Positions 21,627 through 37,568 of a DNA stretch of 42,149 bases are shown here, piece after piece. The stretch's first letter is position 1, and each line of letters starts with the position of its first letter. The DNA is taken from the IMG/VR virus record IMGVR_UViG_2541047883_000004; one strand, 5' to 3'. This DNA is from a virus (Duplodnaviria > Heunggongvirae > Uroviricota > Caudoviricetes). Position numbers and translations under genes: made by a program. The notes beneath the pieces were generated by a model. It did no database searches and had not been told where the DNA came from. It saw only the letters and a list, made by a program, of their open reading frames with translations.

Positions 21627-21842
21627 TCACTTTCTTAAATCTAACGATAGACGGCTAACATTTAAGTATTGTGAAATATTATCAAATGTAATCATCATTG
21701 ATTTACAAAAGATACATTTTGCCCCGAAAGGATTCCTGTCAGAAACATCAAAAGATGATGTTCTATACTGAGAACCATGGCAACACGGGCATCTAAAGTG
21801 AATATGGTTTGTAATATTATCTACCTCAAAGTGCCACAACAT
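21627..21842 (-). CDS. Possible zinc-ribbon small protein (CPCC ... CIFC)
   Basis: ORF with four Cys in ribbon spacing, ending directly before the terminator. It overlaps the csp 3' end, so the start is uncertain. Confidence 0.3.
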
Positions 21843-22038
21843 GAACAGCCGCGGGGCCTTTAGGTCCGTTCTCAATACCAAATTCGACTTCCTGATTCTC
21901 AGTTAACGTTTTGAAATCGTTGCTCTGAATAGCTGAGAAATGGACAAACACATCTTTGCTACCATCTTTCGGCGTGATGAAACCAAAACCTTTTTCAGGG
22001 TTAAACCATTTCACTAAACCAGTCATTTTGTTAGACAT
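21826..22038 (-). CDS. cspI: Cold-shock protein, CspA family (CspI-like)
   Basis: [38 protein letters not shown] ... with RNP1/RNP2 motifs; long AT-rich 5' leader (22042-22400) typical of csp genes. Confidence 0.8.
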
Positions 22039-22401
22039 CATTATTACCTTTTGAAGAAGTTAGCCCTTGGGCAGAATGGTCCGAAAAAAAATATCAGAGA
22101 GAAAAACCAACAAGGAAATCTCAAGAGGTACAAATAATAAAATTATAACAATGACTGCTTCAGATAATTTTGTAACAAACCAGAACACCATTAACGCATG
22201 ATTAACCAACCATAGCAAGGATTACTTTTGTAAAGAAAAACACACGAATGAAACAATAGCTTTATTTATTAATAAAACGTGTCATTCTGTCTAATGACCT
22301 TTTATCTTACCCTTAAGATTTCAAGGATTTTGACTCATGGAAGAGTCCTTTTTATTTAAATTTCACATTCAGCGCTAAAAATAATCCGATTTAATATTAA
22401 T

Positions 22402-31418: not shown

Positions 31419-31574
31419 TTACTCCTCAGGTTCGTAAGCTGTGAAGACAGCGACCTCCGTCTGGCCGGTTCGGATTCGTACCTCGCAGAGGTCTTTCCTC
31501 GTTACCAGTGCCGTCACTATGACGGTTAAACAGATGACGATCAGGGCGATTAACATCGCCTTTTGCTGCTTCAT
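31419..31574 (-). CDS. hok: Hok-family type I toxin
   Basis: MKQQKAMLIALIVICLTVIVTALVTRKDLCEVRIRTGQTEVAVFTAYEPEE, colinear with Hok (... [28 protein letters not shown]) as recalled. Confidence 0.85.
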   Translation of the reverse strand: MKQQKAMLIALIVICLTVIVTALVTRKDLCEVRIRTGQTEVAVFTAYEPEE

Positions 31575-31640
31575 AGCCTGCTTCTCCTTGCCTTCCGGCA
31601 CGAAAGAGGCTAACCTACATGTGTCTAGCATGAAATTGGC
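31560..31640 (+). ncRNA. Candidate Sok-like antisense RNA region over the hok leader
   Basis: Position only, from established hok/sok organisation. Promoter and 3' end not identified in the sequence. Confidence 0.25.
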
Positions 31641-32197
31641 CTCAGATTAATGTTAAGCGTCTTGCAGGACGCGTAATGTTAACTGGGGCTTTTCTCTATC
31701 TGCCGTTGGTGTTCATGCCTGAGGCAGATAGCCTCAAGCACCCGCAGCAATTCTACTTAACTCACGTCACCTCGCCAATATAAAATCAATCAGAAAGGCG
31801 ATCCGTAAGAACAACAGCAAGACAATAAATTGCCATTACAGCCGCAATAGCTAGCGCACATTTGAGAACCAGCACGACAACCTCCTGAATTGGAAGTACA
31901 CCAGTCCTGATAAATATGAGGCTGTCTCGTCAGTGATTCAATACAACTATTGGGTATAGTTTCTCAGATTTTTTTCTGTGGAAATTGGACACAACACCCG
32001 CTCACCACCAGCACTTCTTTAAACACACCTAGTCAGGATCCCGCCTGACCTTTTATAACACGTAACTGTTAACTGACAGGCAATAGCCTGTCGGATATTA
32101 CAATGTCAGCTCTTGGTGCGAAGCTGTCGCACTAATTCTGTGAGCGAAGAACGGACATTTTCATTGTTGATACAGGATACATTGAAGTAGTCAACCA

Positions 32198-34675: not shown

Positions 34676-35101
34676 TCAATGTACTGCCACAGCATTTCCA
34701 GCCGGGCCACCACGGTTCATCTGATTGAAACCGGCGATTGCCACTGCGACAAAATCATCAGCGTCTCTCACCAGTCGCTCCCGCGTCTCCACCAGCTCCC
34801 GAAAATAAGCTGAACTGTGGCTGCGCATTCTGGCCACCAGCAAAGGTGGCATTGCCTTTTCGATCGCTGGTAACAACGCCTGAATTTTTTCAACTGCATC
34901 AGGGGTGTCTTTCTCTATCCAGCGGAAAATTTTCTGGGTATTGCGAGCCAGGGCTTCCGGATGGCTGTCGTCGTACAGTTTAGGAAACGTCATACCCAAC
35001 TCAAAATAAGCCTGGGTTATTCCAGCTGCCGGAACTTTTTCGCCATCAGGACGTGCCCAGGCATTCATCGCCATGCGGATGTGTTCATGCTTGATTTTCA
35101 T
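34676..35101 (-). CDS. YdaT-like protein (cII-position gene of Rac-type immunity regions)
   Basis: Start MKIKHEHI, as I recall for Rac YdaT; directly downstream of the cro-like gene. Confidence 0.55.
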   Translation of the reverse strand: MKIKHEHIRMAMNAWARPDGEKVPAAGITQAYFELGMTFPKLYDDSHPEALARNTQKIFRWIEKDTPDAVEKIQALLPAIEKAMPPLLVARMRSHSSAYFRELVETRERLVRDADDFVAVAIAGFNQMNRGGPAGNAVAVH

Positions 35102-35327
35102 GAATCCCCCCTTGGTTAGAAGGCGGATTATGATCAGAACCGGGAATGACAACCGTCGGTATGTGTAACTCATATTTGAGCGCCCCGGCAGTGACTGCCT
35201 GAATTAGCAACGCCCATTTCCACGGAACGTCTTCCCCCCACATGCTGACTGTGGTTTTTGACGTTCCTAGAGCGGCGGCTGTTTTAACAACTCCGCCAAA
35301 ATAGCCTAATACTTCTGATTTTTTCAT
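35085..35327 (-). CDS. cro: Cro-like HTH regulator (YdaS-like)
   Basis: MKKSEVLGYFGGVVKTAAALGTSKTTVSMWGEDVPW; SD-less but divergent from cI across an operator-rich intergenic region. Confidence 0.7.
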   Translation of the reverse strand: MKKSEVLGYFGGVVKTAAALGTSKTTVSMWGEDVPWKWALLIQAVTAGALKYELHIPTVVIPGSDHNPPSNQGGIHENQA

Positions 35328-35420
35328 GATTCGCTCCATAAAACTGAACGCCAAAAGTTTAATAATCAAAACCAAAGAAAGTCAAGAAACAAAACCATCT
35401 GTGTTTTAAAATCAAAACAT
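35328..35420. promoter_or_regulatory. Right operator/promoter region (OR, PR, PRM candidates)
   Basis: Palindromes GTGTTTT-N6-AAAACAT (35401-35420), AAAAC-N7-GTTTT (35390-35406) and AAACT-N11-AGTTT (35339-35360). The cI ATG overlaps the last operator. Confidence 0.55.
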
Positions 35421-36057
35421 GAACAAGCAAACAATATCTGAACGCATAACCCAACGTATGCATGCGCTAAACTTGAAAGGCAAAGACCTTGTCAATGCCA
35501 CTGGCGCATCAAAAGGCTCCGTAAGTCAATGGATGAACGGTGGAGGAGCGCCGTCCTCGCGTTACATAAGCTCACTGGCAAAGATATTGAAAGTAAACGA
35601 AAATTGGCTTCTTAATGGAGGAGAGTTAAATACAGGTGATTCGCTTGATCTATCTTTACCGCCGATAAAAACGGTTCCGCTACTATCACTTCAGCAGGCA
35701 GCAAGCTGGAGTGATTATATGAAAAATTCCTCAATAACCTCTTGTGTGCAGCTTGTCGGAGAAATCCCGGCCAATACCTTTGCTGTTGTTCTAGAGAGTG
35801 ACAGTATGTCGACATCTGGTGGTGGAGTTTCCATCCCAAATGGTTCAACAGTTTTTGTTGATCCCGATCGAATCGTACAACCAGGAAATATTGTCCTTGC
35901 CTTACCCAAAGGGACCACAACGCCTGTCATTCGCAAACTGGAGATAGAAGGGCCGGATATTCTTTTAGTCCCCACGAATCCTCGCTACCCTTCAATTATG
36001 CTGGATGATCTATCTTGCATATTGGGAGTATGCTTTAAAATTCAACAAGATATTTAA
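35419..36057 (+). CDS. cI: CI-type repressor (N-terminal XRE HTH plus C-terminal S24 LexA-like autopeptidase domain)
   Basis: HTH (LKGKDLVNATGASKGSVSQWMNG) and a C-terminal S24-like domain with Ser (DSMS) and Lys (VIRKL) context. Confidence 0.8.
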   Translation: MNKQTISERITQRMHALNLKGKDLVNATGASKGSVSQWMNGGGAPSSRYISSLAKILKVNENWLLNGGELNTGDSLDLSLPPIKTVPLLSLQQAASWSDYMKNSSITSCVQLVGEIPANTFAVVLESDSMSTSGGGVSIPNGSTVFVDPDRIVQPGNIVLALPKGTTTPVIRKLEIEGPDILLVPTNPRYPSIMLDDLSCILGVCFKIQQDI

Positions 36058-36119
36058 CCAACCTCATCTATTTGATTAACTGTATGCCATCGTAGTGATG
36101 GCGTAACAGCTGCCTGCTT

Positions 36120-36172
36120 AAAATGTTTTGATAAAAAAACATTGACCTTAAATGTTCATTTTTCTAAACTTC
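36120..36172 (+). promoter_or_regulatory. Left operator/promoter region (OL, PL candidate)
   Basis: Operator palindromes ATGTTTT-N6-AAAACAT (36123-36142) and AACATT-N7-AATGTT (36139-36157), same half-site as at OR. Candidate -35 TTGACC (36142-36147) and -10 TAAACT (36165-36170) with 17-nt spacing. Confidence 0.5.
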
Positions 36173-36268
36173 ATTCATTCCCTCACCCCGCCCCACAGAA
36201 TGCAGGGCAATACTTCGAGTTACCAGGCAGTGGTCAGGGGTTAAGTAGCCAGCCCGAGGCGTAAGAAC

Positions 36269-36505
36269 ATGACGGCAGGGTTCAACTTTAATAACTATGC
36301 AGCAGGTTTTTGTTCCGCTACCCCGGCGTTAAGGGGAAATGAGGTCAGCATGGATACTATCGATCTTGGCAACAGCGAATCTCTGGTGTACGGCGTGTTT
36401 CCCAACCAGGACGGCACGTTCACCGCGATGACGTATACCAAAAGCAAAACGTTTAAAACCGAAAATGGTGCCCGTCGCTGGCTGGAAAGAAACTCAGGTG
36501 AGTGA
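36269..36505 (+). CDS. Hypothetical early-left protein
   Basis: ORF only; first ORF downstream of the PL candidate; not N-like. Confidence 0.3.
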   Translation: MTAGFNFNNYAAGFCSATPALRGNEVSMDTIDLGNSESLVYGVFPNQDGTFTAMTYTKSKTFKTENGARRWLERNSGE

Positions 36506-37082: not shown

Positions 37083-37568
37083 AACTGTGGTGATTTTAAG
37101 GATACCACCTCGCCTGACGTGGTTAAAAGCAGGCACACAACACGAAAGCGCACGGCGAAGTTCGTCTCACTGTACGGTGTCGTTAAATTTAATTCGACCG
37201 TGCGCTTCCGGTTGTGGCAACCCGCGAAATGGCGCGGCGGTAAGTATGGCGGGGTTATTCCTTCCCCGTTGAGGACACCGGGTTGTCAGGTTGACCATAC
37301 GCTTAAGTGACAACCCCGCTGCAACGCCCTCTGTTATCAATTTTCTGGTGACGTTTAGCGGTATCAGTTTTACTCCGTGACTGCTCTGCCGCCGTTTTTA
37401 AAGTGAATTTTGTGATGCGGTGAATGCGGCTGAGCGCACGCGGAACAGTTAAAACCAAAAACAGTGTTATGGGTGGATTCTCTGTATCCGACGTTAATTG
37501 TTAACTGGTTAACGTCACCTGGAGGCACCAGGCACTGCATCACAAAATTCATTGTTGAGGACGCGATA

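Follow-up and report, generated by a model that had tools for sequence, protein, structure and literature searches.

Predicted repressor and Cro operators in the immunity region of a CP-933O-type lambdoid prophage

The window analysed here, a stretch of 42,149 nt, is an intact Qin-type lambdoid prophage adjoining rspB, in which a cI-like repressor gene and a cro-like gene are divergently transcribed (Table 1). The repressor is identical to AAG56160.1, annotated as 'repressor of prophage CP-933O' in E. coli O157:H7 EDL933, and its PDB matches are lambda cI and the N-terminal domains of the 434 and P22 C2 repressors; the Cro-like protein matches P22 Cro (1rzs, E 3e-8). The catalytic pair of the S24 domain is present, with Ser129 (in SDSM) and Lys173 (in IRKL) aligning with lambda Ser149 and Lys192. 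At the position of the lambda Ala-Gly cleavage bond the aligned residues are Ala94-Ala95, followed by Ser96, and they are invariant in four variants; because this bond is Ala-Ala, direct SOS cleavage of the repressor is not assured. A CP-933O tail-fibre gene is upregulated 32-fold with ciprofloxacin (PMC11125564), an observation that bears on cleavage only indirectly. The operators described below sit on the sigma-70-like promoters PR and PL. Judging from sequence, PR would start near 35349, upstream of a candidate cro Shine-Dalgarno (GGAG, 35337 to 35334), and PL near 36177. PL is the counterpart of Qin dicBp, which has been described (PMC10448788). The region is AT-rich, at only 29-34% GC, and none of OR, OL, and the PL leader matched an Rfam family.

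Table 1. Features of the predicted switch region (positions in the 42,149-nt window; functions of sites and promoters are predicted)
Feature	Coordinates	Strand	Remarks
Immunity-specific segment (cro, OR, cI, OL/PL)	35107..36183	.	Flanks are DNA common to heteroimmune prophages
cro-like gene	35085..35327	-	80 aa, P22_Cro family; Pfam PF14549, E 1e-15; RefSeq CDS coordinates
PR candidate	-35 TTGACT 35385..35380; -10 TAAACT 35361..35356	-	18-nt spacer; promoter scan, 9/12
OR1-like operator AAGTTTAATAATCAAAACCA	35355..35374	.	Perfect core 35357-35372; covers PR -10
OR2-like operator AAAGTCAAGAAACAAAACCA	35378..35397	.	Good half CAAAAC; other half is PR -35 (AGTCAA)
OR3-like operator GTGTTTTAAAATCAAAACAT	35401..35420	.	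Perfect palindrome 35402-35419, ending on cI start codon
Candidate PRM -10, TAAAAT	35407..35412	+	6 nt before A35419, in centre of OR3; putative function
cI-like repressor gene	35419..36057	+	212 aa, N-terminal HTH and S24 peptidase domain; Pfam HTH_3 and Peptidase_S24
Hairpin 3' of cI stop codon	36080..36109	+	-16.5 kcal/mol, z -2.7; without T-run
OL2-like operator ATGTTTTGATAAAAAAACAT	36123..36142	.	Core 36125-36140; abuts PL -35
PL	36142..36170	+	-35 TTGACC, 17-nt spacer, -10 TAAACT; promoter scan, 9/12
OL1-like operator ATGTTCATTTTTCTAAACTT	36152..36171	.	Core GTTC-N8-AAAC 36154-36169; covers PL spacer and -10

A preliminary description of this DNA had proposed that one 20-bp palindrome, ATGTTTT-N6-AAAACAT, stands at both OR and OL. 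The OL copy is exact (36123-36142, ATGTTTT-GATAAA-AAAACAT), but the OR copy (35401-35420) reads GTGTTTT-AAAATC-AAAACAT, so that only the 6-bp arms TGTTTT/AAAACA are perfect in both. The proposed overlap with the cI start codon holds, since the resulting 18-bp palindrome (35402-35419) covers the A of the ATG, whereas the OL copy, which was thought to overlap the PL -35 element, abuts it instead, its final T doubling as the initial T of TTGACC (36142-36147). The imperfect palindromes said to flank each copy are real, at 35355-35374 and 35378-35397 in OR and at 36152-36171 in OL; OR holds three sites rather than one with vague flanks. The shared operator core is GTTT-N8-AAAC, within predicted sites of 16-20 bp, and the best half-site reads ATCAAAAC(A). 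The OR sites are in register, with centres 23 bp apart, compared with 29 bp between the two OL sites. The left half of 35378-35397 is poor, and a scoring matrix derived from the remaining sites ranks it 37th of 84,260; 36152-36171 is the best non-training site in the window under a symmetrised matrix trained on three sites, but its 7/8 core match alone is at chance level across the window, as are one-mismatch core matches generally. A fourth OR site in the 23-bp register (35332-35351) was rejected as a poor match at positions that vary in relatives, as was a palindrome AACATT-N7-AATGTT at 36138-36156, where most relatives have AAAGTT. No third OL site was found upstream of 36123, where the DNA is G+C-rich and without a core match.

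Could such sites be chance palindromes of AT-rich DNA, with PR and PL alike merely through TTGAC(T/C) and TAAACT and with GTTT/AAAC arms read by no repressor? The 29-34% GC of the region, the identical -10 hexamer TAAACT in both -10-proximal sites, and the chance frequency of one-mismatch cores would all fit such a reading. Against it, a search of the 42 kb for TGTTTT-N6-AAAACA with up to one mismatch finds just two copies, both perfect, at OR and OL (expected number 0.23; 3 of 100 shuffles reach two). The core GTTT-N8-AAAC occurs at four places in the window, three of them in the intergenic regions flanking cI (35357-35372, 35403-35418, and 36125-36140). We also shuffled only these two intergenic regions in a composition-matched test, corrected for multiple looks by allowing any 4-bp palindrome with a spacer of 4-10; three copies were reached in 17 of 2000 shuffles (about 0.8%), and two copies of a palindrome with 5-bp arms in 14 of 2000. 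Furthermore, the best palindromes (35402-35419 and 36124-36141) lie off the PR and PL hexamers.

Comparison with heteroimmune prophages bears on the same question. By blastn, homology to three heteroimmune relatives, L095, L096, and L097, stops at 35106 and restarts at 36174-36184, so the swapped segment is about 1.08 kb long and contains the operators of both OR and OL; operators and repressor have been exchanged among these relatives as a single module. The motif comparison with Rac and other heteroimmune lambdoids that the preliminary description had suggested finds a distinct palindrome in each relative at both of these positions, on similar promoters: GGTAAC-N4-GTTACC in L095, TACCCATGGGTA in L096, and TAGGC-N3-GCCTA at the RacR locus L097, the last in agreement with footprinted RacR operators (PMC9638921). 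The distance between OL and OR is only about 0.72 kb. We think it very probable that this region serves as the genetic switch of a lambdoid prophage of the Qin type with CP-933O immunity, with the repressor and Cro as the predicted site binders.

Sequence conservation within the immunity type points the same way. Word-indexed protein searches with the whole repressor or its N-terminal domain returned near-identical proteins only, scanning GTDB species-representative genomes yielded no true relative, and a first viral scan gave only loci 99-100% identical, which served for polymorphism and not for footprinting (viral loci numbered none for P0072 and one for P0075). Among same-immunity relatives whose cI shows 83-89% identity, variation is concentrated outside the cores, at 18 of 43 positions, and touches only 2 of the 48 positions within them (Fisher p = 2e-5); the recognition helices of cI and Cro are both invariant. 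In diverged relatives the spacers are altered and the sites spared: the core of 35355-35374 and the site 35378-35397 are invariant, and 36123-36142 is conserved in L003 despite changed flanks. Because the sites overlap -10 and -35 elements, part of this conservation could reflect promoter function.

The core also co-varies with the recognition helix. In a sister family (P0058), whose repressor is 40.6% identical overall and has the helix ASKGTVSQW where ours has ASKGSVSQW, 28 of 29 distinct loci have perfect GTTT-N8-AAAC cores beginning at -16 and -62/-63 relative to the ATG, and in 27 of the 29 a perfect core ends exactly at the repressor ATG. Between the two perfect OR cores lies AGTCAAG-N5-AAAC, the same middle-site design as here, and the spacers between sites vary freely. 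At the sister PL two sites flank the -35, one upstream of TTGAC and one a perfect GTTT-N8-AAAC ending in the -10, spaced 33-34 bp compared with 29 bp here; the sister half-sites are GTTTAAT or GTTTGAA, compared with GTTTTGA here. GTCAAGAA plus a half-site is seen in more distant relatives too, and where the helix is a different one, VNRVTVTGW, the layout is the same but the palindrome is another. With this co-variation and the module-specific palindromes set beside the shuffles, chance and promoter likeness are a very improbable account of the sites. Every computational test run (promoters, module boundaries, conservation, helix co-variation) agrees with repressor and Cro operators, and we are almost certain that the CP-933O-type repressor and Cro bind the two matching palindromes. 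A literature search found no publications on this module or on CP-933O operators.

Two further readings assign the palindromes to other molecules. First, YdaT, a CII-like protein, or a host factor might bind the sites in place of cI and Cro. The cores hold TTGAT(T/A), half of the published site TTGATT-N6-AATCAA, with TTGATT within 35355-35374 and 35401-35420 (on the - strand) and TTGATA in 36123-36142, and the YdaT of this prophage is closely related to the CP-933P YdaT that has been crystallised (E 1e-78). However, the full TTGATT-N6-AATCAA is absent at OR and OL, and its only near-match (35091-35108) falls at the cro/ydaT junction, the location of the main YdaT site in CP-933P (PMC9986795). 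Moreover, ydaT is not part of the immunity-specific segment, and heteroimmune prophages whose OR and OL lack TTGATT share the gene, so a YdaT site would not be expected to track cI type; we judge binding by YdaT or a host factor to be highly unlikely. Second, the palindromes could act as RNA hairpins, either a terminator or a translational element, given that 36118-36147 folds better than shuffles (-5.7 kcal/mol, z -4.4). Yet the stems are weak (-3.6 and -5.7 kcal/mol), all A-U or G-U, without G+C stems or T-runs, two of the four sites folded give no fold, and 36123-36142 and 35401-35420 lie upstream of the PL start and the predicted cI start, respectively, which makes an RNA role barely credible.

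Returning to repressor and Cro as the binders, in the mechanism that we infer, including protein-site pairing and order, cooperativity, looping, transcription start sites, and SOS cleavage, the two proteins would each bind GTTT-N8-AAAC sites as dimers. The -10-proximal sites 35355-35374 and 36152-36171 are likely the primary repression sites: repressor bound there, aided by neighbouring sites, would shut PR (cro, ydaT, and replication genes) and likewise PL (ydfABC, dicF, dicB, exonuclease, xis, and int). Cro, or excess repressor, on 35401-35420 would shut cI transcription, and the cI mRNA made from PRM would most likely begin at the A of the ATG and so be leaderless.

Different gene callers place the cI start at different codons. 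An in-frame TAA at 35407-35409, 12 nt upstream of the ATG, makes a start codon farther upstream impossible, and in relatives the stretch 35419-35458 carries synonymous changes, which favours ATG 35419 as the true start. The operator-cI junction, TGTGTTTTAAAATCAAAACATG, consists of TAAAAT, 6 nt, and the ATG, without a Shine-Dalgarno, and the TAAAAT-ATG junction is invariant in 91 loci. The repressor ATG is tied to the end of the last operator similarly in L140, L141, and P22, and leaderless transcripts have been mapped experimentally for paaR2 (PMC8630535) and racR (PMC9638921). A leaderless cI mRNA starting at A35419 is plausible. Alternatively, the operators may be real but the cI mRNA not leaderless, with an AU-rich leader lacking a Shine-Dalgarno transcribed from farther upstream, either from within cro or from a PRE-like promoter that depends on YdaT and lies near the cro/ydaT junction. 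A + strand promoter-like site does lie inside cro (35284-35313), an OM-like YdaT site is found at 35091-35108, and in CP-933P the repressor operon can also start from PRE (PMC8630535, PMC9986795). The candidate PRM also has no recognisable -35, and the middle operator would occupy its -35 region. On the other side stand the TAAAAT placed exactly 6 nt 5' of A35419, the absence of a Shine-Dalgarno in every family member, the coupling of the ATG to the third operator's end (in the 27 of 29 sister loci and in L140, L141, and P22), and the mapped leaderless starts in sibling prophages. PRE-type and leaderless PRM transcripts can, moreover, coexist, as in lambda. On balance we consider a cI mRNA that is not leaderless somewhat unlikely.

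If a leaderless start at A35419 is accepted, the geometry of PRM has a consequence for regulation. The predicted PR and PRM starts are 70 bp apart. The centre of the middle site (35387.5) lies at -31.5 from A35419, so that the site would cover the PRM -35 region (AAGAAA, 35384-35389) rather than lie near -42 and adjoin a weak -35 as in lambda, a comparison that rests on the predicted start; at -31.5, self-activation of the lambda type is not predicted. The PRM -10 would fall in the central stretch of the third operator, where a dimer bound to the two outer half-sites would not normally make contact. A middle operator made of the PR -35 plus a half-site, with the PRM -10 inside the third operator, is conserved in a broad clade of P22-Cro-type prophages that spans the GTTT-N8-AAAC family and a GTAGGAT-N2-ATCCTAC family. 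That the switch works without lambda-style self-activation is a possibility that we regard as rather doubtful. If it were true, the logic of lysogen maintenance would differ, with repressor synthesis governed solely by how RNA polymerase competes with repressor or Cro for one composite element, and immunity specificity within the GTTT-N8-AAAC clade would be set by half-site positions 5-7.

Among known switches, P22 immC shares with this prophage a P22_Cro-family Cro, a C2-like repressor N-terminal domain, three OR sites, -10-proximal sites at PR and PL, the PL -35 TTGACC, and, with the P22 OR operators placed from published sites, a third OR site that abuts the c2 ATG. It differs in that C2 is only about 28% identical to the repressor here, its operators are 18-bp sites of the ATTTAAG...CTTAAAT type, its PR -35 lies between OR2 and OR3 rather than forming half of the middle site, and PL leads to the N-like gene 24 instead of the ydfABC-dicF-dicB operon. 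CP-933P of O157:H7 has the same prophage backbone and a near-identical YdaT, together with a short divergent intergenic region of equally spaced repeats, strong sites alternating with one-half-conserved sites, and a PL with related operators, all as here. Its repressor gene has been shown to be leaderless (PMC8630535). However, PaaR2, which heads a toxin-antitoxin operon, and YdaS, an XRE-type HTH protein (PMC8630535, PMC9986795), are unrelated in type to the cI and P22-type Cro here; the half-site GTTTAGTAA and the 18-bp repeats (GTTT-N10-AAAC) of the published consensus (PMC8630535), on which this comparison rests, differ from the half-site GTTTTGA and the core GTTT-N8-AAAC here; and there are four repeats, compared with three at our OR. 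Rac shares flanking DNA, both on the ydaT side and in the leader that follows PL. Three inverted repeats are present there, with O1 on the lytic promoter and O3 overlapping the racR ATG, and its strongest racR promoter gives a leaderless transcript (PMC9638921), but its operator, (T/A)TAGGC-N3-GCCTA(T/A), is unlike GTTT-N8-AAAC and RacR is a different, non-S24 repressor.

Qin of E. coli K-12 occupies the same chromosomal locus by rspB and has the same downstream ydfA-ydfB-ydfC-dicF-dicB-ydfD operon, and operators have been reported in its dicA-dicC intergenic region and at dicBp (PMC10448788, PMC3441716). DicA has 135 aa, lacks an S24 domain, is not mitomycin C-induced, and is controlled by the antirepressor Rem (PMC10448788, PMC3441716), whereas this prophage is intact and encodes a LexA-type repressor of full length. 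The OR centres here lie at -15.5, -38.5, and -61.5 from the predicted PR start, and those of lambda lie at about -17, -41, and -64, a spacing of 23-24 bp compared with 23 bp here. Both repressor genes lack a Shine-Dalgarno. The PR and PRM starts are 83 bp apart in lambda, compared with the predicted 70 bp, lambda has three OL sites to the two found here, and this prophage has neither a rex gene nor a recognisable N gene.

We regard the operator prediction as sound but ordinary, since the layout is the classic one of lambda and P22, and understanding of lambdoid switches is unchanged by these results. CP-933O-type modules are common, occurring in 1042 of 5426 complete E. coli genomes (match covering at least 80% of a 1.4-kb query), with O157:H7 EDL933 among the carriers, and with the module in about a fifth of these genomes an operator map should be useful to experimenters: it indicates the bases whose mutation should lock the prophage on or off, the prophages expected to be mutually immune, and the place to seek the cI transcript start. 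The fusion of the repressor ATG to the last operator in the relatives examined offers a reusable annotation rule where current pipelines make inconsistent start codon calls for these repressors, and the same GTTT-N8-AAAC core recurs in a sister family sharing nearly the same recognition helix. At the other end of the repressor gene, the hairpin downstream of the stop codon may mark the end of the cI transcript; in relatives its stem is kept and its loop is variable, and relatives carry canonical terminators at this position.

The region around cI appears to be an ordinary P22-like genetic switch of the lambdoid kind; its predicted operators fall in two clusters about 0.72 kb apart. This type of switch is already known, here with an experimentally uncharacterised immunity specificity, and our literature search for operators of this immunity module found no paper. 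A preliminary description had predicted operators at both OR and OL, and module position, conservation and co-variation with the recognition helix all support that prediction; to it we add a five-site map, the module boundaries, a GTTT-N8-AAAC rule that applies across the family, in which the last operator runs into the start codon, and a predicted geometry unfit for lambda-type self-activation.

Predicted switch elements and other annotated features of the prophage
Feature	Position	Strand	Details
cro-like gene	35085-35327	-	80-aa ORF, P22_Cro family
OR site 1	35355-74		covers PR -10
OR site 2	35378-97		PR -35 (AGTCAA) and one good half-site (CAAAAC)
OR site 3	35401-20		ends on cI start codon
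PR	TTGACT 35385..35380; TAAACT 35361..35356	-	18-nt spacer; promoter scan
cI-like repressor	35419-36057	+	212-aa ORF, HTH_3 and Peptidase_S24
First OL site	36123-42		last base is first T of PL -35
Second OL site	36152-71		covers PL spacer and -10
PL	TTGACC 36142-47; TAAACT 36165-70	+	17-nt spacer; promoter scan
DicF sRNA	37343-37394		Rfam, curated (gathering) threshold
sok antitoxin RNA adjoining hokD	31569-31743	-	Rfam, curated (gathering) threshold
cspA-type thermoregulator 5' UTR	21780-22196	-	Rfam, curated (gathering) threshold

Read directly, the first OL site is exactly the palindrome originally described, ATGTTTTGATAAAAAAACAT; its OR counterpart, GTGTTTTAAAATCAAAACAT, is also palindromic, with G rather than the proposed A as its outer left base. 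The cI start codon does overlap a predicted operator: a perfect 18-bp palindrome, TGTTTT-N6-AAAACA (35402-35419), has the A of the ATG as its last base. Allowing at most one mismatch, this motif occurs in just two places in 42 kb, here and within the first OL site (expected 0.23; two copies reached in 3 of 100 shuffles). The flanking palindromes also reported are borne out by an unguided repeat finder, which linked 35357-72 to 35403-18 (88% across 16 nt), 35361-74 to 35384-97 (86%), and 36151-69, as an inverted copy, to 36125-43 (79%). The common core, GTTT-N8-AAAC, is found at four places in the window, including 35357-72, 35403-18, and 36125-40. The palindromes could in principle reflect only chance or similarity among promoters, but this is contradicted both by their co-variation with the recognition helix (see below) and by the shuffle tests, including a stricter one, limited to the two AT-rich intergenic regions and open to all 4-bp palindromes with spacers of 4-10, in which three copies were reached in 17 of 2000 shuffles. 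Read instead as RNA hairpins, the palindromes give weak A-U stems (-3.6 and -5.7 kcal/mol), and two of the four sites folded gave no fold at all.

With a symmetrised scoring matrix trained solely on OR sites 1 and 3 and the first OL site, the second OL site is the best remaining site of the whole window, and OR site 2 ranks 37th of 84,260 positions with an oriented matrix. Taken alone, a 7/8 core match such as that at 36154-69 is at chance frequency across the window; we predict an operator there because of its position and the comparisons with relatives. OL is polymorphic at 36149-36153, reading TTAAATGTTC in the window and in roughly one locus in four and TGAAAAGTTC in most loci, the former being nearer the operator consensus. 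In five related loci (L004, L005, L049, L052, and L093) the A-run at 36133-36139 within the first OL site is one A shorter, altering the half-site spacing; in three of them the repressor is also truncated (178 or 187 aa), as would be expected if the prophages were decaying.

Relatives of the same immunity type (loci L003, L089-91, and L094; repressor 83-89% identical) carry intergenic substitutions between the sites, at 35328-53, 35373, and 35397-400; 2 of 48 positions vary in the cores versus 18 of 43 outside them (Fisher p = 2e-5); the presumed recognition helices of cI and Cro are both invariant. An exhaustive HMMER search with the cI N-terminal domain recovered a sister family represented by P0058, which shows 59% identity over that domain (40.6% overall) and has the recognition helix ASKGTVSQW, against ASKGSVSQW in cI. 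When 29 distinct upstream regions (from loci L099-L139 plus the window) were compared, perfect GTTT-N8-AAAC cores started at -16 and -62/-63 from the repressor ATG in 28; in the sister family AGTCAAG-N5-AAAC lies between them, and the inter-site spacers are free to vary. On the 3' side of the sister genes a terminator is followed by GTTT-N8-(A/G)AAC, TTGAC, and a perfect GTTT-N8-AAAC that has the -10 as its 3' end, an OL layout common to the sister family and the window. More distant relatives, from phages Lys8385Vzw and YeP1, combine a different helix (VNRVTVTGW) with a different palindrome (GTAGGAT-N2-ATCCTAC). The layout is unchanged, with GTCAAGAA and a half-site making up the middle site and the third site ending at the ATG (CCTAC-ATG). 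P22, with its OR operators placed at the published sites, likewise has its third site against the c2 ATG, and its PL -35, TTGACC, is the same as here. P0058-type repressors (216-218 aa) form a sizeable family on IMG/VR viral contigs, with half-sites GTTTAAT or GTTTGAA versus GTTTTGA in the window, and share the operator-ATG fusion.

Three heteroimmune prophages (L095, L096, and L097) have flanking DNA in common with the window. Homology extends as far as 35106, where cro ends and ydaT starts, and picks up again at 36174-36184, where PL is predicted to start, which places both clusters inside an exchangeable immunity module of ~1.08 kb. The motif comparison with Rac and other heteroimmune lambdoids, proposed at the outset as a check, showed that the palindrome at the two cluster positions differs from relative to relative: GGTAAC-N4-GTTACC in L095, TACCCATGGGTA in L096, and TAGGC-N3-GCCTA in L097, a RacR-type locus. 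The last matches the RacR operators identified by footprinting and comparison (PMC9638921), validating our reading of the other loci. The OR and OL sites might alternatively belong to YdaT, whose published site is TTGATT-N6-AATCAA (PMC9986795), but ydaT sits outside the module, and the sole near-match, TTGATTTTCATGAATCCC (35091-35108, two mismatches), is at the cro/ydaT junction rather than at OR or OL. The main YdaT site of CP-933P, OM, has the same position, and 35091-35108 may be a PRE-like control point. Primer sequences of the CP-933P paper match the ydaT start of the window. Heteroimmune prophages, K-12 Rac among them, have the ~165-nt PL-ydfA leader (36184-36349) at 92-97% identity, and L139 has part of it. 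The leader matches no Rfam family and has an RNAalifold structure of -38 kcal/mol, almost without covariation; it might serve in processing, antitermination, or control of translation of the dicBF-type operon, or it might extend ydfA at its N-terminus (ORF from 36269).

An in-frame TAA at 35407-09 leaves ATG 35419 as the sole possible cI start. From there to the next ATG (35458), changes among relatives are mostly synonymous, indicating a coding stretch, which lines up with helix 1 in the 434 and P22 repressors; conservation supports the predicted 212-aa form. Annotated versions start at three codons (112, 200, or 212 aa): RefSeq has 112 aa from ATG 35720, missing the entire DNA-binding domain, GenBank phage record ON470612 has 200 aa from ATG 35458, and the protein cluster contains 112-, 174-, 199-, and 212-aa versions. 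Such inconsistency fits a gene without a ribosome-binding site. No Shine-Dalgarno sequence precedes ATG 35419, TAAAAT (35407-12) lies 6 nt ahead of A35419, and the cI transcript is probably leaderless from that base. Experimental mapping has shown leaderless transcripts of CP-933P paaR2 (PMC8630535) and of racR (PMC9638921), and in Rac operator O3 overlaps the racR ATG as the third OR site does that of cI. Directly after the cI stop is a hairpin (36080-36109; -16.5 kcal/mol, z -2.7), its stem invariant and loop variable among ~90 loci, with no T-run after it; the corresponding position is occupied by canonical intrinsic terminators in heteroimmune and sister-family relatives.

The OR 20-mers start 23 bp apart, with centres at -15.5, -38.5, and -61.5 relative to the predicted PR start near 35349, close to those of lambda (about -17, -41, and -64). 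The PR and PRM starts, however, are 83 bp apart in lambda and a predicted 70 bp here, so the centre of the middle site falls at -31.5 relative to the predicted PRM start, where there is a weak -35 region (AAGAAA). Activation from -42, as in lambda, is thus not expected.

The window, 100% identical to E. coli Ecol_316, is a complete prophage adjoining rspB, with hokD, ydaT-like, cro, cI, ydfA, ydfB, dicB, ydfD, an 823-aa exonuclease gene, xis, and int. This neighbour, the gene content and DicF identify it as an intact relative of K-12 Qin, with PL as the counterpart of dicBp (PMC10448788). The repressor is identical to AAG56160.1, annotated as that of prophage CP-933O of O157:H7 EDL933, and 1042 of 5426 complete E. 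coli genomes match at least 80% of a 1.4-kb module query; among characterised repressors the nearest are P22 C2 and phage 21 cI, at only ~28-30% identity. Ala94-Ala95 of cI aligns with the Ala111-Gly112 cleavage bond of lambda, Ala94-Ala95-Ser96 (35698-35706) is invariant in four diverged variants, and the catalytic pair Ser129/Lys173 is intact. Since the cleavage position is Ala-Ala while the catalytic pair is present, direct RecA-stimulated cleavage is plausible but unproven. A CP-933O tail-fibre gene is up 32-fold with ciprofloxacin (PMC11125564), which supports such cleavage only indirectly.
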